Of a stretch of 64,000 nucleotides of DNA, positions 1-49,812 are shown in pieces; position 1 is the stretch's first letter, and every line of letters begins with the position of its first letter. The notes under the pieces are model-generated. The model was not told the DNA's origin. It saw nothing but the letters and a program-made list of their open reading frames with translations, and ran no database searches. The position numbers and the translations under genes were made by a program. Source of the DNA: an uncultured Eubacteriales bacterium (GTDB taxonomy: Bacteria > Bacillota > Clostridia > Christensenellales > UBA1242); contig CABSCS010000003.1 of NCBI GenBank assembly GCA_902476355.1, forward strand, positions 21,882-85,881, written 5' to 3'.

Positions 1-3000
1 TTTGTGCTTGTGAAAGTTCAGATTCAAGTTCAGCCTTTCTTTCGGCTTTATATTGTTCTTTGTTTGCAAGTTTAGAATATTGAGTTTCCATCTTATCAAG
101 GGCTTGTGCTCTATATTCCATTTCCTTCTTAACAGCCTCGGCATCGTTCACATCAAGTTTGCTCATGTAGTTCTTTGCTGTTGCTTCTCGGTCAACCTTG
201 CCGTTTTTGATAACAACTTTGTTCTTTTCGGTGAAGTCTTTGAGTTCTTCTTGATATGTCTTTTCCATATCTTTAAGTTTCTCGCTAGCCTCTTTGCCTT
301 TGCGTTCCCACTTGTCCATCTTAGCGCGATAGCGGTCTTCTTCTTTATCAGTCATCTTGTGGCTAAACATTGCTCTTGGCATTGCAAGAAGTGCTTTTTT
401 GAGAGGAGCCTCATAGATTCCTGCTTCTTTCATTGCAATCTTGGTTTGTTGTTTTGCAATCTTCTTGTCAAGAACATCATCTTTAAATTCAACTCTTGCG
501 GTTGCTTGTTTTACATATTGGTCGGTTGTAAGCATCTTTCTTGCTTCTGAAAGTTGACGTCTTGAAAGGTCTTTAACCTCGGAAACATCAGTTCCTTTCT
601 TCTTGTTATAAAGGTTCAATGCTTGAACGTCTTTCCACTCAGAGATTGCCTTTTCAACAAGTTTTTGATCGTCACTTGCCTTTCCAGTAAGTTTTGTATT
701 TCCTTGTTTGCTGTTCCAAAGTTTGATTGCCTCTTCTTTTACAACTTTCTTGTTGCTTTCGAAGATTGTTTCTGAAACATCTTTGCCTTTGTTGAATTGT
801 TCATATGCTTTTTGACGTTGAAGAATTCCAAGTTTCATGTCTGCATTGCCTTCGGCTTGTTCACGGATTCTTTCTTCACGTTGTTCAAGAAGTTTATCAA
901 GTTTTTGACGATCTTTATCTATGCCACGTTCTTTTCCGCTTGTTGCAAGTCCATATGACTTGTCAATTCTTCCACCAGCAATATCTGCATAGTTTCTTGA
1001 AGCCTCAGATGAAAGTTTAGCCGCTTCGGCATAAAGTTTTGCTCTTTCTGCTGAAATTGAAGCGCCACCATCTGATGGGTTTTCAACATCTTTTGCAACG
1101 TCTGCTGTTTGAGCGTGTTCAACGTCGCCTTTATCTTTCTCGCCTTGTGCTTCTTCGGTCTGCTCTTCAACCTTTTCTTCAACTGTTTGTCCAACAATTT
1201 CTTCGGTCTTTTCTTGAACTGTTGATTCAGCAGTTGCTTGTGCTTCTTGTGTTGCTTGTGCGGCAACATCCGCTTTAAGTCCGTCAACAAGTCCAGAAAC
1301 TTCATTTCTATATGCTGTGCGTTCTTGAATTGTCTTCTCTAAGCCACGTTCCTCTTCGGTAGTGTCTTCATACATCTTGTTATAATCACGAATTTCCTCA
1401 GCAAGTCGTCTTGCTTCTTCACCATGAACATCTTTAAGTTCACGTTCGTCTCTTGGAACAAACTTACCGGTCTTCTCGTTATAGCCATAATATGAACCTT
1501 CATTCTTGAAGAGATCAGATTTTGCTTCTCTGAGACCTTTGAGTTCATCTTTATAAGATTGAATTTCGTTTTCAACTTCTTGAAGTTCTTGTTGCCACAT
1601 TCCAATTTCTTTTTCACCAGAAGCATTTCTCATTTCTTCCGAAGTTGGAAGTTCATTTCCAGAAGCATCAACAGGTCTTTGAGTTTCACCAGTCTTATCA
1701 GCCTCTGCGTTTTGATCTGCGCCTTGGTCTTTCTCTATTGTGGTATCTTTCTTGTCTTCGCCACCAACAAGTTCACCAGCACGTTTAGCATAGTCAACAG
1801 AGCCTTTATTGTTGATGTTAACATCAATTTCAGGTTTCTTTTCATCACCCTCAGACTCTTCGCCTTCTTGTTTTTCTTCGCTTGCAGGTTCTTCTGCTTT
1901 TTCTTGAGGAGCCTCTGCATTTTCGTCTGCTTCTTGACCCTCTTCTTTGTTAAGTGCATCACCAACTGCGTTTTCAATTTCTTCATGAACGCCATCTTTA
2001 ATGCCATCTTCAAAGTTTCTTGCTTGTTCGTCTGAAACAGTTTCGTTGTTTGCGTTTGCTTCTCCGCTTTGACCTGTAATGTTGGTTTGAATTGTTTCGC
2101 CGTTTTCTGGAGTTTTTGGAGTTTCTTGTTTTTGTTCAGCAGGTGCATTTTGATTTGCAGCATTTGTTGCTTCTTCTGCTTCCTGCATCTTTCTGTCTGC
2201 ATCGCGACGTGCTCTTGCTTCTGCTTCTTCTTTTGCAATTTGTTCAGAAGATTTCTTGTCTTTAGGTTTCATGTGACTCTTGATTTCGTCATAAACCGCA
2301 GAGCCAGGAATAAAGTTCTTCAAATCGCCGTTAAAGAATCCACCAGAGCGTTTGCCATCTTTTCTTTCACCAAGTGCAAAGTCAAGCGCTTTTTCACCAG
2401 AAACAGTCTTTTGAACGTCTTTCGACATATCTTTAACATTTTTCTTAACATCCGAACCAGTTTTAACAACATCTTCGGCTCCGCCACCAATAAATTGAGC
2501 AATTGTTGCTGGAAGAGTTTGAATCATTGTCAAAGCAACAAGTGTAAAGAGAACTTCACAAATGCTGTTGATAAATCCTGGGGTCATGCCCGCAAGAATG
2601 TTTCCTTCTGAAATTGTTGCCATGTCATCGGCAGTAAACAAATGTGAAATGCTTCGAATTGCTGGGCAAAGGATAAAGAATATATTCAGTCCAAGCATAA
2701 CGCCATAGGCACCAAATACCTTTTTGATAAGATTTTCTTTCCATTTTTTGAACTGCGACCCACCATCAAGAGGCATCATCGAAGCAATGCCCGGCAAAAT
2801 GATGAAATATAATGTGATATCAAAGATTCTTTGAATGAGACCCCAAACTGCCTTTCCAAGAATGCTGAGCATTAAACATGCTGCGAACACCAAAATCAAG
2901 AAGTTGATTTTAAGTGGAATATAATAAATTTTAAGTTCAAGTGAAGGTGCATTTCTGTTGAAGAAGTTATAGTCCAAACGAAGCGCTGCCCCACGAATTT

Positions 3001-6000
3001 GGAATGCACTTGTTCTTTGCTGTGTTGCGCTGAAACCTTCCCATAAACAAATATTAAATCTTGTCGTGTCGTTTGAACCTGTAAGAAATTTGATATTGAT
3101 TTGGAAGTCAACATAAAATTTATTTGCATCTACATATTCACGCTTAAATTGGATTGTTGCAGTTGCTGAAAGGTGTTTGTCAACAACAGCAGATACACTG
3201 CCACCATCATAATCAGGAAGTTGAGATAAGTCATATCTTCTGTAAACCGAGCGATATGAATCTGTAATGCCATTTTCTTTATCAACAGAATTTGCCTGTC
3301 CATAGGTATAGAAAATTGCAAAAAGTGATTTTTCAGAATCGTCATTATTGACTGTAATTTGCCAAATATATTTTCCGTCATTTTCAGACTCAAATTTGCA
3401 GAAAATCGAATCTTCACTTACATATGAAGTCTTGCTTGCAAGAACATTCATTGTTGTAAATGTTTGTTGGTTTACAGGGTTATATTGCATCTTGGTGCCA
3501 TTATATTTGAAGGCAAACATATTATAATAGGATAAAGAAACCTTATAAACATTTGTTGTGGTTGGCGTGTAAATTTCAACGCCATTTACAACATTATAAA
3601 CAAAACTAAATTGATAGTTGATTCCTTCAACATAGATTGTATAAGTGTGGATTTGTTGTCCATCAACTTCTTTGGTTTCAACCAAATTCATGTCATATGG
3701 ACGAGCGGTGTAAATGCTTCCAGTTCCCGCACCAGCACCAGAAGTTCTCAAAGTGTTTCCATCAATTTTGAATGAATAGTTTTGGTTTGTAAGACAACTT
3801 ACAGAATAATCTTCGGTGTTAAAGCGAACACGATAAACATTGCCCGAAGACTCGTAATAATAAAGCACATCAGAACCAACAGTTTGTCTTGTTCCGCGGA
3901 TTTCTTGGCTTTCGTTGAATTTGAAAATTGCATGTTCATAATCTCTGTGAAGTTCAAGAACTTTTGCCGTTGAATATGAATATGAAGATCTTGAATAGGT
4001 ATAGTCTGTCAAAACATTTGCGTCTATTGAGTTAAGGCTTGTAACATTATCATTATAGGTGAATGATGACGAGTTCATTGAAAGAGTGTTTTCGGTTGAA
4101 ACAAGATTTACAATTGTTCCAACAACTTGCTCCCCACTTGACACAAGCGAACCAATGCCATAGGTTGCCATAAGTTTGTTGTCTGCATATGTAAATGAAG
4201 ACCTCATTCCTGTTGTATTGTTCGTTTTAACCTCAAAGAAGTTTCCACTTGCTCTGTAATATTCAGCAACAACATAATAGATATTAACAGTGTTTTTCGA
4301 TGTGTATGTTACAAATGCGAAAAGTGGCAAATCGTAAAGTTTTGTTGTTTCATCGGCAGAACCATCACGGAAATCTGCATTTTCAACAGTCTTTTTTAAT
4401 GTTACGTTAGATCTGAACACAACTGCTCTTTCTGAACCAATTTCTTGTTCATATGAAGGATAGCCCTCCCATGTCACTCCTGAAATATAGCGAGTTGCAT
4501 TGTTCTCGTCGGAATATGAGAATGAATTTGGAAGTGATGCAGCAATTGCAGAATAGTTGCTTGAAAGATCTGCATAGTTTTCAATGCTGACAACTGATTG
4601 TTTTTTGGTTTTTACAAGACCACCTTCAAACATTGTATAACTTGAATCATAACCCCTGTCTGAAAGCATTGATGATGGGTTCACTGGGGTTGCAGTAACC
4701 TTTTTTGCAGTTGCATCAAAGAACTTTGAAGTTGTTGTTGAAGTTGAACCTTCTTCAATATCCTTGTTCCAGTCAATGTCAATTTCGGTTGGATAGCCAT
4801 ATTGATTGTCGAAAGTTGATTCCAAAATTCCACGAGCAACAATCAAACCATTATAATTTGAATCAAGATTTTCACTTGCAAATGTATGGTCATGACCATA
4901 GTCGTCGGTGAAAGTTTTTCCGTTTATAAGTGGAATAAATTTGTTAGTTGCTGCGCTGTAATATGCAACAATATAGATAACGCCGTCAGATTCAGCAGTT
5001 TTTGATGAGGTGTTGTCAACATCATAAACAACAAAACCTGAATTTTTATAGTTCACAACAAAAGAGTTGATATATGAAATTGTTCCAGAGCCTGAACCAA
5101 GGTTTGAAGAAATATATCTGCTGTCAACATATCCCCCTTCGGTTGCATTTCCATAGGTCCAGTCAATATTTTTACTGCTTGCATTTACATATGCAATTTC
5201 AGCAACATCGCTGATTGCAAAGTCGATAACATCTGCCATAACAAGAAATTCATCTTGAAGAGCAACAAGACCATTTTTTCCACCATCATGCATTGCACCC
5301 CAAACTTGATTATTTGTGTATTTTTTAGCAGATGCATAATTATGACGGCTGTCTGCCGTGAAGCCAACAACTGTTGCATCAAGAGTGTTTTCAAATGATG
5401 CTTTGTGACGATAGTAAATGCTGTTAAATTTCCAAGTGTTATATGCAGCGGTGTTAAGTGCAGAATCTTTTTTATAGGTGCTGAGCGCTGCTTTAATGAT
5501 ATTGTTGCTTGGGCTTACTTTTTCAGTCTGGAAAGTTGTGTAATCTGCAAGGGTAGCGCCCATTATCTTTGTGAAATATTCCTCATAGAAGCGGTAACCT
5601 TGAACGCCATTGATTTCTTCGGTAAGTTCGTCCATTGAAACGTAATAAAGATACCAATCGCCTTTATACGAGAAAGCATAACCAGTGAACTTGTTGCTTT
5701 CGTTATAATCTTTTGGAACTATTGGTTCAACTGATGTTGAAATTTTCTTTTCGCTTGTTCCAATTGTAACTGTAACAGAGTTTGTAACGGCATAACGAAT
5801 GTTTTTTTCAGCATATTTTCGATAGCGGTTTGCGTCATATGCCGAAGATGCGAACACCTGACCACCAAGCGTTAGGCGATTGTTCACGTTCAGCGCATTG
5901 ACAAGACCTGCCAAAACTGCGTTTGATGCCAAAATTCCCATTACAAGCATTACTGGAACCAAAATTACAAGGAAAATTGCTTTGAAGCATTTTTTCAAAA

Positions 6001-6472
6001 CACCCATTGGGTTGTTGTTTGCTTTGTCATCAACCTCAGCAGCAACAGCATATTGGTTTTTGATGATTGCAATGATTGCGAAAATGATAAGAAGAACAAC
6101 GAACAAGCCAAGCATATATTTGAAAACACGTTGAACAGTTTTGTCATAAAGGAATTTGAAAATGATGTCAGATTCGCCAAGCGTTTCAAGTTTAACATTT
6201 CCCTTTTCCCAATAGTCAATTCCAACAAGGTGTTTGCAGAAATATTGCAAGAAGTCAACAATGTTCAAAATCCAACGCACAATTGTGTAGATAAGTGTGA
6301 AAATTGCATTTCCGATTGCAACAAGCAAATTCCACCAGAACTCACCATTCACCAATTGAAAAACTGAACGGTTCTTGACATCTGGCATTCCAGAAGCAGC
6401 AGAATCTGAAAGCAGACTGCCCGGCTTTACTCCCGCTGAAATAAGACTGATAGCATTTGCAAATTTGAACAT
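1..6472 (-). CDS. giant polytopic membrane protein, >2157 aa, C-terminus runs off the left window edge (VirB6/TrbL/TcpH-like topology; candidate T4SS channel/scaffold)
   Basis: The minus-strand frame with codon first bases at coordinates = 1 mod 3 is open from ATG 6472..6470 to base 1. AAAGGTGAGG lies 8 nt upstream of the ATG and an in-frame TAA lies about 36 nt upstream. The ORF is absent from the track only because no stop lies in the window. My translation starts MFKFANAISLISAGVKPGS. It has 3 TM helices (~6350-5890), a ~1000-aa Y/N/T/S-rich ectodomain (~5890-2925), a second TM cluster (~2925-2480), then a >800-aa E/K/Q/A-rich coiled-coil-like tail (2480-1). Confidence 0.85.
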   Translation of the reverse strand, partial: MFKFANAISLISAGVKPGSLLSDSAASGMPDVKNRSVFQLVNGEFWWNLLVAIGNAIFTLIYTIVRWILNIVDFLQYFCKHLVGIDYWEKGNVKLETLGESDIIFKFLYDKTVQRVFKYMLGLFVVLLIIFAIIAIIKNQYAVAAEVDDKANNNPMGVLKKCFKAIFLVILVPVMLVMGILASNAVLAGLVNALNVNNRLTLGGQVFASSAYDANRYRKYAEKNIRYAVTNSVTVTIGTSEKKISTSVEPIVPKDYNESNKFTGYAFSYKGDWYLYYVSMDELTEEINGVQGYRFYEEYFTKIMGATLADYTTFQTEKVSPSNNIIKAALSTYKKDSALNTAAYNTWKFNSIYYRHKASFENTLDATVVGFTADSRHNYASAKKYTNNQVWGAMHDGGKNGLVALQDEFLVMADVIDFAISDVAEIAYVNASSKNIDWTYGNATEGGYVDSRYISSNLGSGSGTISYINSFVVNYKNSGFVVYDVDNTSSKTAESDGVIYIVAYYSAATNKFIPLINGKTFTDDYGHDHTFASENLDSNYNGLIVARGILESTFDNQYGYPTEIDIDWNKDIEEGSTSTTTSKFFDATAKKVTATPVNPSSMLSDRGYDSSYTMFEGGLVKTKKQSVVSIENYADLSSNYSAIAASLPNSFSYSDENNATRYISGVTWEGYPSYEQEIGSERAVVFRSNVTLKKTVENADFRDGSADETTKLYDLPLFAFVTYTSKNTVNIYYVVAEYYRASGNFFEVKTNNTTGMRSSFTYADNKLMATYGIGSLVSSGEQVVGTIVNLVSTENTLSMNSSSFTYNDNVTSLNSIDANVLTDYTYSRSSYSYSTAKVLELHRDYEHAIFKFNESQEIRGTRQTVGSDVLYYYESSGNVYRVRFNTEDYSVSCLTNQNYSFKIDGNTLRTSGAGAGTGSIYTARPYDMNLVETKEVDGQQIHTYTIYVEGINYQFSFVYNVVNGVEIYTPTTTNVYKVSLSYYNMFAFKYNGTKMQYNPVNQQTFTTMNVLASKTSYVSEDSIFCKFESENDGKYIWQITVNNDDSEKSLFAIFYTYGQANSVDKENGITDSYRSVYRRYDLSQLPDYDGGSVSAVVDKHLSATATIQFKREYVDANKFYVDFQINIKFLTGSNDTTRFNICLWEGFSATQQRTSAFQIRGAALRLDYNFFNRNAPSLELKIYYIPLKINFLILVFAACLMLSILGKAVWGLIQRIFDITLYFIILPGIASMMPLDGGSQFKKWKENLIKKVFGAYGVMLGLNIFFILCPAIRSISHLFTADDMATISEGNILAGMTPGFINSICEVLFTLVALTMIQTLPATIAQFIGGGAEDVVKTGSDVKKNVKDMSKDVQKTVSGEKALDFALGERKDGKRSGGFFNGDLKNFIPGSAVYDEIKSHMKPKDKKSSEQIAKEEAEARARRDADRKMQEAEEATNAANQNAPAEQKQETPKTPENGETIQTNITGQSGEANANNETVSDEQARNFEDGIKDGVHEEIENAVGDALNKEEGQEADENAEAPQEKAEEPASEEKQEGEESEGDEKKPEIDVNINNKGSVDYAKRAGELVGGEDKKDTTIEKDQGADQNAEADKTGETQRPVDASGNELPTSEEMRNASGEKEIGMWQQELQEVENEIQSYKDELKGLREAKSDLFKNEGSYYGYNEKTGKFVPRDERELKDVHGEEARRLAEEIRDYNKMYEDTTEEERGLEKTIQERTAYRNEVSGLVDGLKADVAAQATQEAQATAESTVQEKTEEIVGQTVEEKVEEQTEEAQGEKDKGDVEHAQTADVAKDVENPSDGGASISAERAKLYAEAAKLSSEASRNYADIAGGRIDKSYGLATSGKERGIDKDRQKLDKLLEQREERIREQAEGNADMKLGILQRQKAYEQFNKGKDVSETIFESNKKVVKEEAIKLWNSKQGNTKLTGKASDDQKLVEKAISEWKDVQALNLYNKKKGTDVSEVKDLSRRQLSEARKMLTTDQYVKQATARVEFKDDVLDKKIAKQQTKIAMKEAGIYEAPLKKALLAMPRAMFSHKMTDKEEDRYRAKMDKWERKGKEASEKLKDMEKTYQEELKDFTEKNKVVIKNGKVDREATAKNYMSKLDVNDAEAVKKEMEYRAQALDKMETQYSKLANKEQYKAERKAELESELSQAQ

Positions 6473-6592
6473 TGTTTCTTCCTCACCTTTCGTTTTTTAT
6501 GAGTTTATCCTAGTTTGATTTTTGAAGCAAAAATTTATTTGTATTGCGACAAAAACGCGCACAATTCGAGCAATATATATATTTATACTTAT

Positions 6593-6620
6593 AATATACC
6601 ACATACATTTTTATTATCAA
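6593..6620 (-). promoter_or_regulatory. candidate sigmaA-type promoter for the giant gene
   Basis: Minus strand reads TTGATA, 16 nt, TATATT with TGG just upstream of the -10 (TGgTATATT). The context is AT-rich, so chance matches are likely. Confidence 0.3.
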
Positions 6621-7365
6621 AACGATTTTCGAATTTTTTTGATTTTTTTTAAAATGTAAAAAGTGTTTTCAAAAAATCATAGCATTTTATCATAGATAAA
6701 ATGAAATTTTAGCCACTTTACATTTTAACACTAAAAAATATTTGTCATGAAAATAAAAAAATGGTCAAAAAAATTGCCATTTCCCATTTTTTCTACTTAA
6801 AAAAATAAAACAATATAAATCTGATTTTCAAAAAATATTTTTATTTTACAATAAAATGTAAACAATCAAGCAAATTAAAGCAAGAAAATACATTTAAAAC
6901 AATTTTTCAGAAAAATAAAAACAAAAAAAATGAACAACTTTCCAAAATCAAAACACAACCATAATATAAGAAGAGATTTCGAATCTTCCCCTATCACCGA
7001 AAGGCGTTTATACCCCTACACATTTAAAAAAAGGTATATTAAAAAACGGAAATGATGTTCATTTTTTTTACAATTAAGATGATATATAAATCAAATTAAA
7101 ACACAGCATCAACTTTCACTTTGCATGTTTGAAAACGAGCAGTAGCAAGTCGATTTATACCTTGTCATTTTGAGCGGTTTCGTTTCAACGCAGAAGCAAC
7201 AAAATATAGTCGAAAAATCTTAACGATTTTATGATATAAAGCCCAAAACATTGAGCCATTTATCATGCAAAAAACATTTCTGATAAATATCTTATTTTTT
7301 CCCCTAGCCTACTATAAGCAAAAAGCAATTTTAACGAAATTTAACAAAACCCAAAAATTTCTGCA

Positions 7366-7391
7366 TAAAAAAAAGAGAGCCGAAGTTCTCT
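7366..7391 (-). terminator. rho-independent terminator after the proximal pilin-like gene
   Basis: Minus strand reads GAGAAC-TTCG-GCTCTC followed by TTTTTTTT. Confidence 0.6.
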
Positions 7392-7406
7392 TTTTTCCGT
7401 TAGTGA

Positions 7407-7745
7407 TTAACTAAGACTATCTTTAACATCTGGGAACAATTTCTTGATTGCACCTGAACTCAAAATAGCATATACAACCGAAGCGATAACAGCAGCAACA
7501 AGAACACCAATGATCATGTTGATAAGTTGTCCTTTTGCTTTATCTCTGTCTTCTGTTGTTTCAGCCTTTGCAAATTTGATTCCAAGAATGATACCATAGA
7601 TGATACCAAACATAAGAACAACTGCGATGATTACAGGCATAACAATGTTAACAACACTTTTGAAAGTGCCATAAGCAGTGTTAACAACTTCTGAAATTCC
7701 ACCTGTACTACCAGATTCTGCTGCCAAAAGATTGATATAGTTCAT
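7407..7745 (-). CDS. small two-TM membrane protein, pilin-like (VirB2/TrbC-type hairpin topology), paralog 1
   Basis: ATG at 7745 is preceded by AAAGGAGGAGAG. The upstream part of track ORF 7407..7823 looks spurious. The 112-aa product has two hydrophobic helices joined by KFAKAETTEDRDKAKGQLIN. It is clearly paralogous to 7910..8221. Confidence 0.8.
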   Translation of the reverse strand: MNYINLLAAESGSTGGISEVVNTAYGTFKSVVNIVMPVIIAVVLMFGIIYGIILGIKFAKAETTEDRDKAKGQLINMIIGVLVAAVIASVVYAILSSGAIKKLFPDVKDSLS

Positions 7746-7909
7746 GATCTCTCCTCCTTTATTTTCGGGAGCCACCCCACAGGAGGCTCTTTTTATGTTC
7801 ATAGTGTAACACACTAAAAACAATCAATGCAAACGATTTTTGAACATTTTTCGCATTTCTTATAAAATTTTTCACAAAATAGCAATTTTAATTCAATATA
7901 ACACAAATA

Positions 7910-8221
7910 TTACGAGTTCATCCATTCTGAAAGTGGACCACGAATTGCATATAAAATGATAATCAAAATCAAAACTGTGATAAAGCCAATCAAACCATTG
8001 ATAAGTGCTTTTTGAAGTTTTGCTTTGTCCTCATTGCTTTCTGCTTTTGCAAACTTTACACCAAAAATTATTCCATACAAAATTGTGCAAATGAGCACAA
8101 CACTAATTGCATATGGGCCAATTGTTGAAAGCGCTTGATAAATTGGGTCAAGAGAACTTTCTGCATCTGACTTTCCAAGAAGTCTGAAAACGTTTGAAAA
8201 ACCATAAATCAAATTTGCCAT
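7910..8221 (-). CDS. small two-TM membrane protein, pilin-like, paralog 2
   Basis: 103 aa, with a GGAG RBS. Shares LYGII(F/L)G(V/I)KFAKAE..ED..AK..LIN..IG and the TM-loop-TM layout with 7407..7745. Confidence 0.8.
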   Translation of the reverse strand: MANLIYGFSNVFRLLGKSDAESSLDPIYQALSTIGPYAISVVLICTILYGIIFGVKFAKAESNEDKAKLQKALINGLIGFITVLILIIILYAIRGPLSEWMNS

Positions 8222-8248
8222 TTCTTTTCTCCAAGTTTTTATAGCAAC

Positions 8249-8278
8249 AATATAACACTATTTTTTCATGTTTGGCAA
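8249..8278 (-). promoter_or_regulatory. candidate promoter of pilin-like gene 2
   Basis: Minus strand reads TTGCCA, 18 nt, then the extended -10 TGtTATATT. The GGAG RBS and ATG 8221 follow. Confidence 0.45.
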
Positions 8279-8299
8279 GCATAAATTGCATTTTTATGC
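8279..8299. promoter_or_regulatory. palindromic candidate operator in the divergent promoter region
   Basis: GCATAAA-ttgcatt-TTTATGC (7-bp arms) abuts the -35 of the minus-strand promoter. A third GCATAA half-site lies near 8320. Confidence 0.35.
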
Positions 8300-8389
8300 G
8301 TAAAAAAATAAAAAAACAAGCATAATTTGTTTGCAGGATATAATTTGAATGTGTATAATATTTTTAGTTATCAAAATATAGAGGTTACT

Positions 8390-10363
8390 ATGGCAGATAA
8401 AAAAACAATCAAAGATAACATTATGAAATATCTTTTTTTCACAATTCTTGCAGCGGTTCTTTCCTTTCTTATTGCTTCAACATTCGTAACCATGCTTTCA
8501 CCAGAAGGCCTTTCAGTACGAGGAATAATTAAAAACCTTTCAAACAATGACACAGTTTTCTGGGGTCTTATTATGTTTGCAATTTCATTTTTGCTCGTAA
8601 TTTTGATGAAACCAAACAAGTCCAAGCCTAAACTTAAAGGTAAAGACAAAATGGAAAATCAACGTTTCTTGAACGAAAACGAACTTGACAGCAACTTTAA
8701 ACATTGCATGTGGAGCGATCTTCCAAATTTCAGCCATATGGGTCTCCCATTCCGTGCAGTCAGAAAAGGAAACAACATAAAAATCCATTTCACTTCTGAA
8801 TGCCACATTATCATTGTTGGTGCAACTGGTACTGGTAAAACCGTTTCATTCATTGAACCTGCAATCCAAATTCTTGGACATCTTAAAAACAAACCATCAA
8901 TGTTTATCACCGACTGTAAAGGTGAACTTTATTCAAGACACAGCAAAATGTTAAAAGACCAAGGATACAACCTTATGCTCCTTGACCTTTCTGAGCCATA
9001 CAATTCTATCAGATGGAATCCTCTTGAAGAAATCTATGACCACTGGCAAAGACAACTTCATCTTGAAGAAGAAATCTTGCGTCACACAAACGACAACGTC
9101 AAAAACTATAATTTTATCAAAGTTGGCGAAATTGACAATGCTGAATGGTACGAATTTGACGGAAAAGCCTTCTCAACTCTTAAAGCAGCACTCATGGAGG
9201 TTGAACTTAATAAAACCATCATCAAAGATAAGTGCTATGAAGACCTTCTTGATATTGCAAGCACAATATGTACAATTGACAACCAAAATGACCCAAGTTG
9301 GGAAAAAGGTGCAAGAGACTATTTCTATGCAGTTTTAATCGCAATGCTTGAAGATAGTGAAAATGATTCTCTTGGAATGACAAAAGAACGTTTCAATTTT
9401 TATAACGCATATAAAATTGCAATGAATAAAGATGACGACTTTGAAGTTGTAAAACAATACTTCTCTGGCAGAAGCCCAATTTCAAGAACAAAACAACTTT
9501 CAGCAAACATCACTCAAACCAACGCAAAAACCACAAGAGATGGTTTCATGTCAACCCTTAACACTAAACTTGCAATGTTTGCAGACAGTGGAATTTGCTA
9601 TTTAACTTCTAAAAACGAAGTAAATTTCTATAATTTCGATGACCAACCAACTGCATTCTTCATTAAAATTCCAGATGAAATGGCAACAAGATACACCCTT
9701 GCATCCATTATTATCGCAAATTCATACAAAAAGTTTGTTGCAAAAGCAAGAGATAACGGCAAATATATCAAAGGCAACCAAGTATGCCTCAAACGCCCAC
9801 TTATGTATATTATGGACGAGTTTGCAAACCTTCCAAAAGTATATGAACTTGAAAAGAACATTACAGTTTCACGTTCAAGACACATTTTTTTCAATATGGT
9901 TATTCAATCATATTCACAACTTGAAGGTGTTTATGGAAAGGAAAATGCAAGTACAATCAAAGGAAACTGCAAAGCAACTGTATTCCTTGGAACACCAGAC
10001 CTTGAAACAAGAAAATCATTTTCAGACGAACTTGGCTCATATACAATTGAAACATCAAGCATAAACTCTCCTGACAAAAAAGGAAAAGATTCAAGTGGTC
10101 CATCAACAACAACTTCATTTCAAACAATCCCACTCATCTACCCTTCAGACCTCGACAAATTGCCTCTTGGTGAAAACATTACTAAAATCTTTCAAAGTTA
10201 TCCTGTAAGATCAACAATTACACCATATTTCAAATGTATGGACATCTATGAAATTGGTGCATATCAACAACCATATATCCCAGGAAGAAAATTCAACGAA
10301 CAAGAAGTTTATTATGATATTCGCAGAAGAAACCGTATTGTTCTTTCCTATGATGATGAATAG
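8390..10363 (+). CDS. type IV secretion coupling protein (VirD4/TraG family ATPase)
   Basis: ATG 8390 follows a GAGGT RBS. The 657-aa product has two N-terminal TM helices, Walker A VGATGTGKT, and the motifs DCKGELY, RWNPL, YIMDEFANL and VIQSYSQLEGVYG typical of T4CPs. Confidence 0.85.
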   Translation: MADKKTIKDNIMKYLFFTILAAVLSFLIASTFVTMLSPEGLSVRGIIKNLSNNDTVFWGLIMFAISFLLVILMKPNKSKPKLKGKDKMENQRFLNENELDSNFKHCMWSDLPNFSHMGLPFRAVRKGNNIKIHFTSECHIIIVGATGTGKTVSFIEPAIQILGHLKNKPSMFITDCKGELYSRHSKMLKDQGYNLMLLDLSEPYNSIRWNPLEEIYDHWQRQLHLEEEILRHTNDNVKNYNFIKVGEIDNAEWYEFDGKAFSTLKAALMEVELNKTIIKDKCYEDLLDIASTICTIDNQNDPSWEKGARDYFYAVLIAMLEDSENDSLGMTKERFNFYNAYKIAMNKDDDFEVVKQYFSGRSPISRTKQLSANITQTNAKTTRDGFMSTLNTKLAMFADSGICYLTSKNEVNFYNFDDQPTAFFIKIPDEMATRYTLASIIIANSYKKFVAKARDNGKYIKGNQVCLKRPLMYIMDEFANLPKVYELEKNITVSRSRHIFFNMVIQSYSQLEGVYGKENASTIKGNCKATVFLGTPDLETRKSFSDELGSYTIETSSINSPDKKGKDSSGPSTTTSFQTIPLIYPSDLDKLPLGENITKIFQSYPVRSTITPYFKCMDIYEIGAYQQPYIPGRKFNEQEVYYDIRRRNRIVLSYDDE

Positions 10364-10541
10364 AAACAAAAACTCAACCGCTTGGTTGAGTTTTTTTTAT
10401 TGCAAAAATCAAATTTCACGCCTTTCAAAAATGCATAAAAGTTTTTATAAAATGTAAACTAATTGTATATTTATAAAATATATTTCAAAATCATGTCCAA
10501 ATTATTTGCGAAATATGTCGCCTTGTGATAAAATTTGTGTA

Positions 10542-12332
10542 ATGGAAAATAGGAACAAGAAAAATTCTTTGATAGCATCATTGCTTTTGTTTGCAAGTTT
10601 GTTTGCAATCTTTTTCGCATGCATCTCTATTTGTTTCACGCCACTTTCAATATCTGTTGCAGAAGAAACCGTTTCTCCTGTTGCCGATGAAGAACAAACC
10701 AAGAAAAAAGACATTTTTGAAATTTTGGATTATTTCGACATTTCACAAGAAGGCTATATCTTCAAAAAAAATGATTTCATCACAAACTATGGTTCAAACG
10801 GAAACAGCCTTGCGCTCTACACCAACCGAACCGTTACAATAAACACTGTTGAACCAGCAAACGGAAACCTTACATACACCTTTTCTGTTGCAATCAACTC
10901 TCTCACAACAATAAAACAACTTGAAGACAATGGCTATATCTATCGCGACCCACTTAACAATGAAATTATCTCATATGTTCTTGATATCAACGGCAAAACC
11001 GACGACATTGAAAACTATATCTATTTGAACCTTGAAATTCACTATCCTCCTTCCGAGGACAGACCTGGTGGATACAACGAAACACTTGAACTTCCATTTT
11101 ATATTGTTCAAACTCCAACAAACTTTGAAAAAGAAAATTCAAGTGCAACAAACGAGTTCATTTTGTGGAAATATGTATACAACAACCAACCAATTACAAC
11201 AACAGCACCAGGAAACGGCGAAACTTTCACAACCTTGAACCTCACCTTCCCATCTGGAACAAAACTTAACCCAGTTTATGTAAAGTTCATCTATTGCGGA
11301 GAGCACTATGAAATTTATCGCTATTCATATGAAGAAGCCGGCGAAAAAATTACAAAAACATTCAACTCTGCAAACGATGAAGAAATCGACATTACTGAAC
11401 TTTCATTCAATAAATCTGGAACCTATACAGTTCGCATTTTCGATAAAACTGTAAATTCCTCTTGTCCAAACAAGAACTTCTATGAATATAAGTTCATTAT
11501 CAAAAACACTTCCCTTTCAACTGACGGATTTTTCATTAACGCCCAAGACGAAAGCGGAAATCCAATCATGAACGGACAATACACCAACAGCAATGTTACA
11601 ACAATTTTCGAAAACTGGACATCAGATTTCAAAAGCCAAGTGCACAAAATCACAGTGATTCGTGCATATCAACCATCAATCAGTGAAAACATTCCTGTTG
11701 AAAAAACCTATCTTCCAGAAGAACTTCCTTCTTCTCTCACCTTTTCAGAAGACGGAACCTATGACATTAAATTTGAAAACCGCCGTGGCGACATTTTATC
11801 AGAATATAAATTTGTTATCACAAAAAGCATTAAAACCTCTTTCAAAATTGGCGACACAATCTATCGCATTGCCGATGACGAGGCATCAAACGAAACAAAA
11901 GAATTTTCAATTGATAACACAGCAACTTCAACCTATAATGGAATTCTTGGAAAAACAAACTTCTCCTTCAACATTCTTGTTGCGCGAAGCGAACCAAGCA
12001 TTGTTGGTGTTTCAAACAACGAAAGAACTTCAAATGCAGTGAACCTTAAGGTTTATGGCGTTGGAAAAATTGATGTTTACATTTCTTTGAACGGAACTCA
12101 AATGATGCTTGAAACCGAATATGAAAACGGAGGACGCCTTCCAACCCTTACAGAGCAAGGAAGTTATTTCATTAAAGTTACCGACGAAATGGGTTCTGTA
12201 ACAACAAAAACCTTCACAGTTACAATGAAACTTAACACAGCATCTATTATCTTGATTGTAATTGCATCAATCGCACTTGTCGGACTTGTTGTGTTCATCA
12301 TCTTCTCTCGTGGAAAAGTTAAAGTTAGATAG
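10542..12332 (+). CDS. surface protein with N-terminal signal/anchor, repeated beta-sandwich-like modules and a C-terminal TM anchor (candidate adhesin)
   Basis: Starts MENRNKKNSLIASLLLFASLFAIFFA. The module ending recurs three times: SGTYTVRIFDK, DGTYDIKFENRRGD, QGSYFIKVTDEMGS. The C-terminus is ASIILIVIASIALVGLVVFIIFSRGKVKVR. Confidence 0.7.
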   Translation: MENRNKKNSLIASLLLFASLFAIFFACISICFTPLSISVAEETVSPVADEEQTKKKDIFEILDYFDISQEGYIFKKNDFITNYGSNGNSLALYTNRTVTINTVEPANGNLTYTFSVAINSLTTIKQLEDNGYIYRDPLNNEIISYVLDINGKTDDIENYIYLNLEIHYPPSEDRPGGYNETLELPFYIVQTPTNFEKENSSATNEFILWKYVYNNQPITTTAPGNGETFTTLNLTFPSGTKLNPVYVKFIYCGEHYEIYRYSYEEAGEKITKTFNSANDEEIDITELSFNKSGTYTVRIFDKTVNSSCPNKNFYEYKFIIKNTSLSTDGFFINAQDESGNPIMNGQYTNSNVTTIFENWTSDFKSQVHKITVIRAYQPSISENIPVEKTYLPEELPSSLTFSEDGTYDIKFENRRGDILSEYKFVITKSIKTSFKIGDTIYRIADDEASNETKEFSIDNTATSTYNGILGKTNFSFNILVARSEPSIVGVSNNERTSNAVNLKVYGVGKIDVYISLNGTQMMLETEYENGGRLPTLTEQGSYFIKVTDEMGSVTTKTFTVTMKLNTASIILIVIASIALVGLVVFIIFSRGKVKVR

Positions 12333-12338
12333 AAAAAA

Positions 12339-12364
12339 GGCTTGCAAAACGCAAGTCTTTTTTA
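12339..12364 (+). terminator. rho-independent terminator
   Basis: GGCTTGC-aaaac-GCAAGTC followed by TTTTTT. Confidence 0.7.
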
Positions 12365-12690
12365 TTGCCTGTTTTTTTGTCTGTCACTAGCAATTGCTCA
12401 ATTTTTCCACTATGCAAACCCTTACCTTACTATTCACTTTTTGTGATAATCATCTTTTATGCTTCCTCATTATATTTATAGTTCTTCTGCTGTTTTTTCA
12501 AAAACAATATAACAAATAAATGATTTTTTTTGAATTTTGCCCTGAAGAGTTTCAAAAAAACATCTTATTTAAAATTAAAACAACCATTTCACCAACTTTG
12601 CCGGTTTAGCCACGCATATATGATTTCACAATATAAAAAACACTTGTGCATTCAATAACCAGTTTACATTGATATTTCATATCATGAAAC

Positions 12691-13464
12691 ATGGACAAAA
12701 GCATTCTTTTTTATGACAGTGGAATTGGCGGTCTTTCCACCCTTGCAAAAACCATTCAAATTCTTCCAAATGAAAAATATATCTATTTTGCCGACAACCT
12801 GCACGTTCCCTATGGCAACCGCACAAATCAAGAAATTTGCGACCTTGTTTATGCAAATATTTTGGCACTTTTAAAGCGTTTTAAAGTCAAACTTATTGTG
12901 ATTGCATGCAACACCGCAACAAGCCTTGCAATTGACTTTTTGCGTTCAAAAATCCAACTTCCAATAATTGGAATAGAGCCCGCTGTGCGCGTTGCCGAAA
13001 AGAAAAGCAAAACCAAAGAGATTTTGGTGATTGCAACAAAAGCAACAATTTGTTCAAAGCGCTATTTTTTGCTTTCAAAATCAGTTTCATGCAAAGTTCA
13101 CTCTTGCTTTTTGCCATCTCTTGCAAGCAAAATTGAACGTGGACTTATTTTTGGCGGATTGAACATTGATGCTGAAACAAATTTCATCAAAAAAACTCTT
13201 GAAAAATTTCCAAATATCGACCAAATCGTGCTTGGTTGCACACATTATAGCCTTGCCCAAGATAAACTGAAAGAACAAATAAATATTCCGCTTTCAGATG
13301 GCAATTTTGGCGTTGCAAAAAACATTAAACGCACTCTTGAAAAACAAAACATTCTTCGAAAAGAAGGGTTTTTAAACCTTCAAATTGTTTTGTCCAAAAA
13401 CAGCCCTCTTCTTTCAAAAAAATATCATGAAATTATAGAAAAACAAATATTGCACCAGTCTTAA
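12691..13464 (+). CDS. murI: glutamate racemase
   Basis: Contains FYDSGIGGLS, the IACNTA and LGCTHY cysteine motifs, and has the typical length. Confidence 0.9.
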   Translation: MDKSILFYDSGIGGLSTLAKTIQILPNEKYIYFADNLHVPYGNRTNQEICDLVYANILALLKRFKVKLIVIACNTATSLAIDFLRSKIQLPIIGIEPAVRVAEKKSKTKEILVIATKATICSKRYFLLSKSVSCKVHSCFLPSLASKIERGLIFGGLNIDAETNFIKKTLEKFPNIDQIVLGCTHYSLAQDKLKEQINIPLSDGNFGVAKNIKRTLEKQNILRKEGFLNLQIVLSKNSPLLSKKYHEIIEKQILHQS

Positions 13465-13556: not shown

Positions 13557-14009
13557 ATGCCTAACATTAAATCTGCAAAGAAAAGAGTTGATCTTAATGA
13601 GAAAAATAAAGCAATGAACAAGTCATATAAATCTGAACTTGCAACTGCAATGAAAAAATATGTTAAAGCAGTTGAAGCCGGAGATAAAGACCTTGCAACA
13701 AAATTGTTGCCTGAAACATTTGCTATTCTTGATAAGAATGTTGCAAGAAACATCATTCACAAAAACAAGGCTGACAGAAAAAAGGCTGAATTTAACGGAA
13801 TGCTTCAAAAAATGAACGCAAAAGTTGAAGAACCAAAAAAGGCTGTAAAGGCTGAAAAAGTTGAAGCAACAAAAGTTGAAGTTGAAGAAAAAGCAGAACC
13901 TGCTAAAAAACCTGCAAGAAAAACTGCAACCAAAAAAGCAACTGAAACCGACGCTGAAAAACCTGCAAAGAAAACAACAAGAAAAACTGCAACTAAAAAA
14001 GCGGAATAG
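13557..14009 (+). CDS. rpsT: 30S ribosomal protein S20 with a lysine/alanine-rich C-terminal extension
   Basis: Starts MPNIKSAKKRV after a GGAG RBS. The first ~85 aa are S20-like. A ~65-aa tail follows with a duplicated PAKK.(A/T)RKTATKKA unit. Confidence 0.85.
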   Translation: MPNIKSAKKRVDLNEKNKAMNKSYKSELATAMKKYVKAVEAGDKDLATKLLPETFAILDKNVARNIIHKNKADRKKAEFNGMLQKMNAKVEEPKKAVKAEKVEATKVEVEEKAEPAKKPARKTATKKATETDAEKPAKKTTRKTATKKAE

Positions 14010-47784: not shown

Positions 47785-49812
47785 TTACTCTTTATCATCA
47801 TTTGCTTGAACTTTCTTTAAAACTGCATTAAACTTTTTGTCTTCAAAGAACAAGTCTTGCTTTTCGCCTTTTTTAACATTTTGCATTGCTTTTATCTGAT
47901 ATAACTGAATGTTTTCTGTTTCTTTATTTTCTGAAATGGTGTTTTCATTTTCTTTTGTTTCACCACTAACTTCATTGCTTATAAAACTGCTTGTTCCCAT
48001 GTTAAGTGTCAAAGCAGGAGCAATTCCGATTGAGTAGTCATCAACATCATATTCTTTATATTGTTTTCCAGTTTCATTCACACCCCACATCACATCACTT
48101 CCACCTGATGATGGTGAACGCAACCACCAACGTCCTTTGCCAAGACGCGCAGAACTTGTGCTATAATATGCCCCATTTGCACGAGCATAGTCTGTAACCA
48201 ATTTTGCACCAGATGTTGTTGGAAGTTGGTTATATGAAACCGCCTCTATATATCCAAGTGCAAAGATTTTATCTTCGGTGTTGTTGCAAGCATATTCGTT
48301 TGTTGAATCGTCGGTTGTAATGCTTCTGTTATCAACCGTTGTTGTCAAGATATAATTTTTCTCTTCGGTTGAAAATGCTTGATAATAGAAACCATTGAAT
48401 TGATAATATTTATAATCTGCCGTATGATATGAATAGTCAGAAACGTTATATTCTCTTCCATCATAACTGTTCAAGAACGCACGGATATGCGAATATTCAT
48501 AGTTGTTTGCATATACTGTTTCGCCATCAACGGTTCTTTCTCCATCAATAATTTGATAGCATGGAATGTAAGAGGTCAAAATGTTTTCCGAGGCAATGAT
48601 TGCTTGACCATTGCTTTCTTTTCCAATTCTCCATTTGATTGGTTCAACTTTGAAATAATAGTAAGTTGAAAAATCAAGGGCTGTTCCGTCGGTGAATGTA
48701 TAGTCCTGTTCATAGGCATTTCCGTTTTTCTTTCCATATCTTTCTTCATCTGAACCAAGGAAATAACCTTTTGAATCCACATCGGTTTCATCAATTGTAA
48801 CATCGCTTGCTTTGATTGTTTGTGGATATGAACCAAACAAAACAAAGTCGCCAGTTGAACTCTCATTTCCGTCTTCATCAACACGTGTGATGATATTTCT
48901 CCACCAAGCATATAAAACGCAATTGTCATTCACAACATAACTGCGAGTTGTTCTTGTGCTTGTTGTTCCCGAATTTTGAACCACAGGATACCATCCAGTA
49001 AAGATATAGCCACTTCTTGTTGGTGTTGGAAGTTTTCCAATTGCTCCACCCTTTTTAACAGTTCGGCTTGTTTCAGAAACCGTTCCAAATTGTGGGTCAA
49101 ATGTGACAGTTCTTGAAGACTCTGCAAGCGAAATAGTCCAGTTTCCACTTGTGTTTGTTTGAAGCGAAAGTTCATATGAACTTGAAGAATATCCCGAAAT
49201 TGAAAGTTTTGTCAAATCGGGTTTTGTTGAAGAACCAACAAATGTTATAATTGTGCCAGCTGTTCTTGTACTTGAAAGCACAATTGTATAGTTTGGGGTT
49301 GTTCCAGCATAGTTTTGAACAGTGATTGATGCACTGTTTCCAAGAGTTATCGAATTTTTAATGTTGCACGCCACGCTTATGTTTAAATTTGAAGACGAAT
49401 AAATTTTGTCAAAAATTGTTCCGCCATTCAAGTTCATTGTTCCGGCGTTATAAATGCCATAATTTTGTGTTGTTACACCACTTGCGCCAACAATTCCACT
49501 GGTGATTGTGAAAGTTCCGGCATTGTAAATATTGTCGCCATTTATTGTTGCAGTGTTTCCATAAATTGAACCACTTGTCATGTTCAGTGTTCCACCACTT
49601 GCAATATATGCCCCACCACCATATGATGCTGAAATGCCATGCATTGTTCCGCTGAAATTGAATGTTGAATTTTTTCCAACATAAAATCCACCACCACTTC
49701 CCGAAACAGCATCTGCCGTTTGCATTGAAGAAAAAGAGAAAATTCCAGCGGTAAGCATTGCCACAACTGGAAAAATCAACGCAAACAATACTTTTGAAAA
49801 CCTACTTTTCAT
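47785..49812 (-). CDS. secreted multidomain surface protein (beta-helix GGxxY repeats, Listeria-Bacteroides Flg_new repeat, DUF6273-like domain)
   Basis: Signal peptide. Contains YGGGAYIASGGTLNMTSGSIYGN-type repeats, VTFDPQFG..GYIFTGWY, and FGSYPQ...EPIKWRI. Confidence 0.7.
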   Translation of the reverse strand: MKSRFSKVLFALIFPVVAMLTAGIFSFSSMQTADAVSGSGGGFYVGKNSTFNFSGTMHGISASYGGGAYIASGGTLNMTSGSIYGNTATINGDNIYNAGTFTITSGIVGASGVTTQNYGIYNAGTMNLNGGTIFDKIYSSSNLNISVACNIKNSITLGNSASITVQNYAGTTPNYTIVLSSTRTAGTIITFVGSSTKPDLTKLSISGYSSSSYELSLQTNTSGNWTISLAESSRTVTFDPQFGTVSETSRTVKKGGAIGKLPTPTRSGYIFTGWYPVVQNSGTTSTRTTRSYVVNDNCVLYAWWRNIITRVDEDGNESSTGDFVLFGSYPQTIKASDVTIDETDVDSKGYFLGSDEERYGKKNGNAYEQDYTFTDGTALDFSTYYYFKVEPIKWRIGKESNGQAIIASENILTSYIPCYQIIDGERTVDGETVYANNYEYSHIRAFLNSYDGREYNVSDYSYHTADYKYYQFNGFYYQAFSTEEKNYILTTTVDNRSITTDDSTNEYACNNTEDKIFALGYIEAVSYNQLPTTSGAKLVTDYARANGAYYSTSSARLGKGRWWLRSPSSGGSDVMWGVNETGKQYKEYDVDDYSIGIAPALTLNMGTSSFISNEVSGETKENENTISENKETENIQLYQIKAMQNVKKGEKQDLFFEDKKFNAVLKKVQANDDKE

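Follow-up and report, generated by a model that had tools for sequence, protein, structure and literature searches.

The left end of a 64,000-nt stretch of DNA from an uncultured Eubacteriales bacterium (GTDB lineage Clostridia, Christensenellales, UBA1242; contig CABSCS010000003.1, positions 21,882 to 85,881; hereafter the window) carries genes of a type IV secretion system (T4SS). They encode a VirD4/TraG-type type IV coupling protein (T4CP), two small proteins with two transmembrane (TM) helices each, the first part of a giant membrane protein, and a surface protein, p605. An earlier note, made from the sequence of the window, had taken these five adjacent genes for one apparatus, and this reading stands: all five are real, and their families co-occur with virB4 in 80 metagenome loci. 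The locus is probably part of a ~28-kb T4SS of the monoderm (MPF_FATA) class that is fixed in the chromosome and vertically inherited, and whose nearest mobile relatives are the integrative and conjugative elements (ICEs) and plasmids of Mollicutes.

Gene content and extent of the module

The features of the locus in the window are as follows.

1..6472, minus strand: giant1, an extended VirB6-like protein; the first 2157 of ~2776 codons lie in the window, which the gene leaves at the left edge
6473..6742, minus strand: conserved leader/promoter region directly 5' of giant1, with low within-species diversity
6620..6591, minus strand: sigma-70-like site in the giant1 leader, TTGATA-16-TATATT with an upstream TG
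6473..7406: AT-rich gap of ~930 nt from pilB to giant1
7407..7745, minus strand: pilB, VirB2-like two-TM protein of 112 aa with a strong ribosome-binding site (T4SS_pilin and Mbov_0395 matches)
7910..8221, minus strand: pilA, VirB2-like two-TM protein of 103 aa (T4SS_pilin and Mbov_0395 matches)
8222..8389: divergent control region between pilA and the T4CP gene, within-species diversity 0.0076
8278..8249, minus strand, and 8330..8359, plus strand: promoter-like sites in this control region
8390..10363, plus strand: T4CP, VirD4/TraG-type coupling ATPase of 657 aa with two N-terminal TM helices (Pfam, NCBIfam)
10368..10395: terminator with a 12-bp stem, after the T4CP gene
10515..12332, plus strand: p605, 605 aa, or 596 aa from the second Met (TM helices, AlphaFold2 [AF2], Foldseek)
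12691..13464, plus strand: murI (six-frame inspection and open reading frame [ORF] listing)
13557..14009, plus strand: rpsT (six-frame inspection and ORF listing)

The window holds only the right third of the module. The whole spans ~28 kb between murI and gap (GAPDH) and extends ~16 kb further left of window position 1; contrary to the earlier note, it is not compact. Its order is murI / p605, T4CP / pilA, pilB, the AT-rich gap, giant1, VirB4, giant2, giant3 / gap (GAPDH), with giant1 at 2776 aa (2750 to 2799 aa at full length in same-species contigs), VirB4 at 919 aa, giant2 at 2057 aa, and giant3 at ~1290 aa. The left flank was assembled stepwise from a 55-aa VirB4 fragment, used because the giant protein itself was not among the results of the word-indexed homologue search, followed by a homologue search and exact look-ups in same-species contigs. 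The exact pilA protein occurs in 101 indexed blocks of public assemblies from gut-type samples, and the 23 contigs with it that were read all have the same synteny. On its right the module adjoins murI and rpsT, as the note had said, and the remainder of the window consists of ordinary core genes (comEC, holA, relA, spo0A, spoIIR, greA, holB, valS, dnaE, whiA, murB, rplM/rpsI, and PFOR), which includes the spo0A and murB genes that it had listed.

Families of the module proteins

The coupling ATPase was correctly recognised from the sequence: its two N-terminal TM helices (residues 15-33 and 55-73) and the quoted motifs VGATGTGKT, DCKGELY, RWNPL, YIMDEFANL, and VIQSYSQLEGVYG are all present in the translation. 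It scores 158 bits against Pfam T4SS-DNA_transf, 106 bits against TraG-D_C, and 98 bits against TrwB_AAD_bind, and its 268.5 bits against NCBIfam conju_CD1115 exceed the cut-off of 250, which identifies it as a T4CP and not an FtsK protein.

A VirB4-like ATPase had been predicted just left of position 1, and the virB4 gene was found directly after giant1. Its product matches Pfam P-loop_TraG, DUF87, and AAA_10, and aligns to positions 2-891 of 894 of NCBIfam VirB4_plasma (“Mbov_0397 family ICE element conjugal transfer ATPase”) with 581.5 bits, against a cut-off of 590. The orthologues in a sister species (L011; related loci are cited by L numbers) and in a distant relative (L016) score 591.5 and 568 bits, and all of these matches are full length. 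On the Firmicutes CD1110 model, whose cut-off is 325, the VirB4 of the module scores only 172 bits. It is 92% identical over its full length, and 85% over the 55-aa N-terminus, to a protein of uncultured Clostridia bacterium UMGS1774. Two N-terminal TM helices occupy the same positions as in Spiroplasma citri VirB4, and to judge by this topology the pair may resemble a fused VirB3-type anchor.

The two small proteins are paralogous to each other, at 48% identity over 58 aa (E = 1e-6), with a hairpin topology, a common loop motif G(V/I)KFAKAE, and TM helices at 38-56 and 77-95 in pilB. Their paralogy and two TM helices were thus rightly noted, but they are not transcribed divergently: both lie in tandem on the minus strand, co-directional with giant1, and it is the pair that diverges from the T4CP gene. 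Against Pfam T4SS_pilin (PF18895, gathering threshold 26.6), pilB scores 28.3 bits and pilA 26.1 bits, that is, above and 0.5 bit below; against the NCBIfam Mbov_0395 pilin-like family, with a cut-off of 40, they score 31.6 and 34.7 bits, respectively. An hhalign comparison with PrgF of pCF10 gave a probability of only 12%. An orthologue of pilB is present in L026 and L013. The pilA orthologue is inverted in L026 and in L042-L044, where the pilin genes are divergent, and across species pilA and pilB form two old orthologous pairs.

The giant gene had been placed directly downstream of the small genes; its product is polytopic, as described, and putatively VirB6-like, but it is separated from them by the AT-rich gap of ~930 nt. 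The ~270-nt giant1 leader within this gap has a nucleotide diversity (pi) of 0.006-0.014, compared with a synonymous diversity of 0.04-0.10 in the flanking genes. Beside pilB, ~300 nt are hypervariable among members of the species, with indels and a pi of 0.08-0.17 that exceeds synonymous diversity. Searches of the whole gap, leader included, found no Rfam match at gathering or E-value threshold, and a pilin-gene remnant there was sought by tblastn and rejected.

Giant1 exceeds the cut-offs of two NCBIfam families, MMCAP2_0566_fam (127.8 bits, cut-off 90) and ICE_Mbov_0396_TM (79.1 bits, cut-off 70), with a match divided between an N-terminal and a C-terminal stretch. Together with the full-length VirB4 match and the scores of the small proteins, which are below the NCBIfam cut-offs, this agrees with the three family names given in the earlier note, Mbov_0395, Mbov_0396, and Mbov_0397. 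Giant2 and giant3 are paralogues of giant1 that score just under the MMCAP2_0566_fam cut-off of 90 (88.8 and 82.6 bits). All three giants have a common design of three TM helices, a large loop (~1000 aa in giant1, ~1580 aa in giant2, and ~400 aa in giant3), two or three more TM helices (three in giant1), and a tail. With the N-terminus inside, helix counts and composition would place the loops outside the cell and the tails in the cytoplasm. The giant1 tail, ~1450 aa long and 35-45% charged, carries indels within the species. An AF2 model of the giant1 loop from 22 sequences (mean pLDDT 68) contains a conserved alpha/beta domain at loop residues ~30-380, with pLDDT ~90 and invariant D, E, and R positions, for which we found no PDB or Pfam sequence match. 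PDB sequence searches with giant1, giant2, and p605, and profile searches, likewise returned nothing significant.

The surface protein had been described as a 596-aa membrane-anchored repeat protein. It does have an N-terminal TM helix (19-37) and a C-terminal anchor (578-596) around an ectodomain of ~540 aa; its length is 605 aa, and its repeat character is at the level of the fold, with only trivial tandem repeats in the DNA. The AF2 model (28 homologues, mean pLDDT 82.9) is all-beta, a string of beta-sandwich domains, and its best Foldseek matches are ICAM-1, the Aureispira grappling-hook protein GhpA, complement MG domains, and DSCAM (E = 5e-8 to 1e-5, with low global TM-scores). As modeled, this is a generic Ig/FN3 adhesion-molecule architecture. 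No lipoprotein-type signal was seen by inspection, no lipobox predictor having been run. The family is narrow, with 142 representatives among 1.84 billion.

Chromosomal fixation and selection

Scans with Pfam and NCBIfam agree with the note that the window part of the module holds no relaxase, integrase, or hydrolase. Among the called genes of the whole module and of 6-10 kb past each border there is also no relaxase, integrase, transposase, or replication gene, and the ~45 kb that were read around the module in the species of the window contain no mobility gene. The two borders have no direct or inverted repeat of at least 12 nt in common; no tRNA gene adjoins the module, the tRNA genes of the window lying only at ~20 and 23 kb. 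The codon style had been judged by eye to be that of housekeeping genes, and the GC content at third codon positions and the synonymous-codon likelihood of the module genes do fall within the range of dnaE, valS, relA, PFOR, murI, and comEC.

The setting of the module is kept across species. L026 retains recG..murI, p747, T4CP, pil, pil, giant1, VirB4, giant2, and giant3, at identities of 37% for murI, 59% for the T4CP, 66% for VirB4, and 33% for giant1. In L029 and L030, giant3 (55% and 39% identical) is again followed by gap (GAPDH), and the GAPDH identities of 92% and 83% parallel those of VirB4, 89% and 75%. The p605 gene is found on every contig with this exact murI where the upstream sequence suffices. 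Other lineages of the clade have the core in other housekeeping settings, after yajC (L025) or before lspA, tig, and clpPX (L028), and in L016 virB4 stands alone beside gpmI.

Ratios of nonsynonymous to synonymous polymorphism (pN/pS), taken from nine same-species metagenome loci, indicate purifying selection. They are 0.027 for the T4CP, 0.07 for p605, 0.08 for pilA, 0.16 for giant1, and 0.26 for pilB; the comparison genes holA and murI have 0.026 and 0.18. Inside giant1 the TM parts have 0.01-0.05 and the distal loop 0.24-0.48. Across species, VirB4 is 60-92% identical over more than 100 clusters, and the giants evolve fast (25-55% identity). Within-species synonymous diversity is ~0.10 in pilA and pilB, 0.06 in giant1, and ~0.035-0.04 in the T4CP gene, murI, and holA; the raised values at surface-exposed parts could reflect recombination or balancing selection. 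We considered whether the module is a decaying remnant and rejected this: across many samples and species the ORFs of 1.3-2.8 kaa are uninterrupted and purifying selection acts on them.

These data bear directly on the explanation that the locus is the transfer module of a real or recently immobilised ICE whose integrase, relaxase, and oriT lie outside the stretches read. Every relative of the VirB4, the TM protein, or the T4CP that has been characterised is a conjugation protein encoded by an ICE or plasmid (PMC6030558), T4CP genes often stand beside relaxase genes that may be far from virB4 (PMC12102498), and a tyrosine-recombinase-like ORF occurs within 10 kb in 1 of the 80 related loci. 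We nevertheless regard this explanation as highly improbable. Both borders are housekeeping genes and are kept across species in which murI is only 37% identical; att-like repeats and mobility genes are lacking over the ranges given above, codon use is native, VirB4 diverges together with GAPDH, selection on the T4CP is as strong as on holA, and other lineages distribute the genes among different housekeeping neighbourhoods. The suggestion in the earlier note of an ancient or domesticated machine rather than a recent ICE is supported, because the borders are conserved, divergence follows GAPDH, selection is purifying, and codon use is native. That the module has no mobility genes of its own suggests that a machine once used for DNA transfer now serves the needs of the cell itself.

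Related loci in gut Firmicutes

A metagenome scan with a VirB4 alignment gave the 80 loci, with VirB4 proteins 41-100% identical, in which we searched for partners with local hidden Markov models built from the TM domain of the giants, the pilins, and p605, and with the T4CP by phmmer. A MMCAP2_0566-like protein ends no more than 700 nt before virB4 in 62 of the 72 loci with at least 1.5 kb upstream. Where at least 8 kb upstream of virB4 was available (37 loci), a pilin-like gene was found in 26, a T4CP gene in 18, and a p605-like gene in 13; TM protein, pilin, and T4CP occur together in 17. The same gene set is thus widespread in gut Firmicutes, mostly beside housekeeping genes: ten compact loci border NadE, MnmA, SpoIIE, GAPDH, Obg, or PlsX.

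In compact loci the order found most often is T4CP, p605-like, pilin, (x), TM protein, VirB4 on one strand (L068, L074, L084, L092, and L116), with a TM protein of ~460 aa or two of 450-800 aa. Compared with these loci, the window lineage has the T4CP and p605 genes inverted onto the other strand and the TM protein triplicated and gigantic. Still larger proteins stand beside virB4 in some relatives, of 3571 and 3607 aa in L034, 4128 aa in L028, and 3320 aa in L061. Because p605-like genes recur beside the T4CP gene in compact loci, many of them distant, p605 is a conserved component and not a bystander.

Mobility and wall-crossing functions were screened in all 80 loci by phmmer with the relaxase (PcfG), the hydrolase (PrgK), PrgL, and PrgI of pCF10, a shallow screen that returned nothing. 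A Tn916-type integrase query returned only the tyrosine-recombinase-like ORF mentioned above.

Two further features were seen in the census. A ~270-aa SBP_bac_3 protein is encoded directly 3' of virB4 in L071 (12769-13581), L089 (12791-13606), L092, and L098; it may be another conserved component, which the window lineage is without. In L097 a p605-like protein has 2442 aa and a downstream protein 2908 aa.

Relation to known transfer systems

Among 72,556 plasmids, VirB4 is matched best by proteins from Spiroplasma plasmids and from a Mesomycoplasma record, which are 25-33% identical to it and carry the annotation Mbov_0397 family. VirB4 aligns end to end with the S. citri protein at 316 bits and with PrgJ of pCF10 at 76 bits; the corresponding T4CP values are 198 and 64 bits. 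The best plasmid matches of the T4CP (26-29%) are CD1115-family proteins of Clostridioides difficile, Spiroplasma, and Bacillus thuringiensis. The gene order had been called Mollicutes ICE-like, and the order does match; the order small TM protein, polytopic protein, VirB4 also occurs, however, in pCF10 (prgF-G-H-I-J), and is therefore an MPF_FATA trait and not a speciality of Mollicutes. What links the module to Mollicutes is sequence, as in these VirB4 scores.

In mycoplasma ICEs, Mbov_0397 is numbered TraE/CDS17 (PMC3365025), and by locus-tag order Mbov_0396 and Mbov_0395 would be CDS16 and CDS15. Conjugation of ICEA requires CDS15, 16, and 17 and CDS5 (PMC6030558); in mycoplasma ICEs CDS16 is considered the probable VirB6, VirB1 and VirB8 are not known, and these elements also drive chromosomal transfer (PMC12857230). 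The module resembles the Mollicutes ICEs and Spiroplasma plasmids (Mycoplasma agalactiae ICEA CDS15-CDS16-CDS17 and CDS5) in the order and, by assignments that partly fall below the curated cut-offs, in the families of its small two-TM, polytopic, and VirB4 proteins, and in being minimal, without VirB8-like or VirB1-like parts and with a surface protein as partner. It differs in having no DDE transposase CDS22, terminal inverted repeats, CDS14 lipoprotein, CDS1/CDS19, or remaining backbone, in its fixed position between murI and gap and its vertical inheritance, and in a host that is walled and sporulating. Its polytopic protein is triplicated and 4-9 times longer, its VirB4 is ~27-33% identical, its T4CP is of the general CD1115 family, and p605 is TM-anchored.

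Relaxase-less chromosomal T4SSs with VirB2 arrays have been described in Patescibacteria (Quinonero-Coronel et al. 2025, PMC12102498; chromosomal T4SSs of this group also by Wang et al. 2023, as cited there). Like the module they are monoderm, MPF_FATA-derived, chromosomal, and without a relaxase, have more than one PF18895 VirB2-like gene near virB4, and are largely vertical within lineages. Here, in contrast, the host is a spore-forming member of the Clostridia, the T4CP is linked and strongly constrained, there are only two pilin genes and three giant VirB6-like paralogues, and no homologues of VirB3 (PrgI), VirB8, or the hydrolase were seen, TrsD not having been searched for.

The rvh system of Rickettsiales and the module have in common that virB4 is flanked by several very large VirB6-like paralogues containing extensive hydrophilic domains, and that there is more than one pilin gene; “extended VirB6” has been recognised as a subfamily (PMC12857230). 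The rvh system is diderm, however, with VirB7/9/10/11, and the giants of the module reach 2.8 kaa (4.1 kaa in relatives) with an insertion in the middle of the TM domain and a long cytoplasmic tail. The likeness is convergent, since no sequence relation to the module is detectable. The pCF10/CTn2-type systems (PrgF-G-H-I-J-K-L, PcfC) are like the module in general order and in the CD1115 T4CP family, but the module is without the PrgK hydrolase, PrgL, or a relaxase, and hhalign relates none of its giants to PrgH. The closest sequence relatives of the module are therefore the channel genes of Mollicutes ICEs and plasmids, its closest functional analogue is the T4SS of Patescibacteria, and its architectural analogue is rvh. 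Our literature searches found no description of such a system in Clostridia.

Several observations weigh against the assignment of the module to a Mollicutes-related, vertically inherited T4SS. The same-species VirB4 falls 8.5 bits short of the VirB4_plasma cut-off, the T4CP is a member of the general Firmicutes CD1115 family, and the pilin assignments are at or slightly under curated cut-offs, while the Mycoplasma homologue CDS15 has elsewhere been called VirB3-like (PMC12857230). Giant1 has no Pfam TrbL/VirB6 match, and hhalign detects no relation of the TM domain of the giants to PrgH of pCF10 (probability 0.1) or to PrgI; “VirB6-like” is thus a putative label, taken from the NCBIfam family, topology, and gene position. 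The conserved domain of the giant1 loop has no PDB fold match (best Foldseek E 7e-3, TM-score <0.1). Pfam and NCBIfam gave no VirB8-like or VirB1-like hydrolase match in any module protein, yet there is a thick wall to cross; a divergent domain of either kind could be hidden in the loops of the giants. A relaxase could be encoded elsewhere in the genome, the search having covered the module and its flanks, and the relaxase screen of the 80 loci consisted of one relaxase query and a Pfam summary of the 25 commonest of 62 families.

Possible mechanism and cargo

The module carries a full gene set for a T4SS of monoderm type, with VirB4, VirD4, putative VirB6-like and VirB2-like proteins, and a surface protein. 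In the mechanism that we propose, VirB4 would energise the assembly of a membrane channel made of the VirB6-like proteins, whose outward loops, possibly with a short VirB2-type filament, would cross the thick wall and contact a neighbouring cell. In this contact p605 would assist as an adhesin, and the T4CP would recruit cargo at the cytoplasmic face.

As cargo we tentatively rank first chromosomal DNA, which would pass between related cells in a conjugation-like process, as in mycoplasma chromosomal transfer (MCT), with no self-transmissible element being served. We place DNA first because the characterised relatives move DNA, the mycoplasma machinery moves chromosomal DNA, and the T4CP is linked and constrained like a replication gene.

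In second place, and rather unlikely in our view, is that the same hardware translocates proteins, toxins, nutrients, or other molecules to or from a bacterial or host cell, as has been proposed for Patescibacteria, and would be a Firmicutes counterpart of their epibiosis or of an effector T4SS. Multiplied extended VirB6 paralogues beside virB4 are otherwise typical of the obligately host-associated Rickettsiales, and their presence here fits such a role, as do the huge, fast-evolving outward loops and the Ig-like adhesin. In being chromosomal and relaxase-less and in having VirB2-like genes, the module also resembles the system of Patescibacteria, which cannot grow as epibionts without their T4SS and pilin array (PMC12102498, PMC12857230). 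However, no candidate effector or immunity genes stand beside the module, and its T4CP gene is tightly linked and strongly conserved, whereas that of Patescibacteria is usually unlinked and is dispensable in S. epibionticum (PMC12102498). The organism, moreover, forms spores and has ordinary housekeeping genes in the 64 kb of the window, which show no sign of a reduced, dependent lifestyle.

DNA import, ranked third, seems improbable. The module would then be a machine like archaeal Ced/Ted or Helicobacter ComB, in which the pilin-like pair, the polytopic protein, and the VirB4-type ATPase pull in DNA. The Ced system consists of two-TM proteins (CedA1 and CedA2), a polytopic protein (CedA), and a VirB4-like ATPase (CedB); the core set of the module parallels it, and both are chromosomal and relaxase-less. 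Matches to the NCBIfam models of CedB (16.7 bits, cut-off 700) and CedD (19.1 bits, cut-off 600) are nevertheless negligible. As far as we know, ComB operates without a T4CP, and a separate one has yet to be described for Ced; here, unlike in those systems, the T4CP is linked and strongly constrained. The competence gene comEC is, in addition, already present 5 kb from the module.

A review of December 2025 describes nearly all Gram-positive T4SSs as plain conjugation machines, finds VirB2-type subunits absent from them except in Patescibacteria, and gives the MPF_FATA VirB6 a length of ~300 residues (PMC12857230). The locus departs from all three statements: it is chromosome-fixed with no relaxase found in or beside it, it has two VirB2-like genes, and its three VirB6-like proteins measure 1.3-2.8 kaa. 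It would be a second, independent domesticated monoderm T4SS, tied by sequence to the minimal machine of mycoplasmas. A broader proposition, which we consider unlikely but put forward as speculation, is that uncultured spore-forming Clostridia of the gut, as a whole clade, and in a looser sense many Firmicutes of the gut, maintain a giant-protein T4SS able to form a pilus as a core, vertically inherited organelle of cell-to-cell exchange. It would be either a walled counterpart of Patescibacteria epibiosis or an ICE-free “chromosomal mating” apparatus like MCT; alternatively, such loci may be the chromosomal stock from which the channel of Mollicutes ICEs came, or the reverse. The locus raises the questions of how a wall is crossed without a hydrolase or VirB8-like protein, what the extended VirB6 domains do, and whether the abundant uncultured Clostridia of the gut pass chromosomal DNA to one another or need contact with other cells.

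Other observations around the module

Beyond gap (GAPDH), to the left, follow genes for a 343-aa protein, a class-I tRNA synthetase (Trp/Tyr type), a 134-aa protein, a zeta-toxin/AAA_33-like kinase, and proS. In L024 (15147-18207) the 343-aa and 134-aa ORFs are without a Pfam match and interleaved with tRNA-synthetase genes, and the kinase, of 229 aa, is encoded in the same stretch just outside the module. Several long contigs stop ~2 kb further on, past proS, which suggests a repeat or an rRNA operon. On the other side, rpsT is called at 150, 167, or 184 aa across same-species assemblies, all unusually long for S20; the variation may reflect start-codon ambiguity or a real extension. Further into the window, a minus-strand gene (47785-49812) situated between dnaE and an ABC transporter encodes what is probably another surface protein, of 675 aa and with the domains Flg_new and DUF6273.

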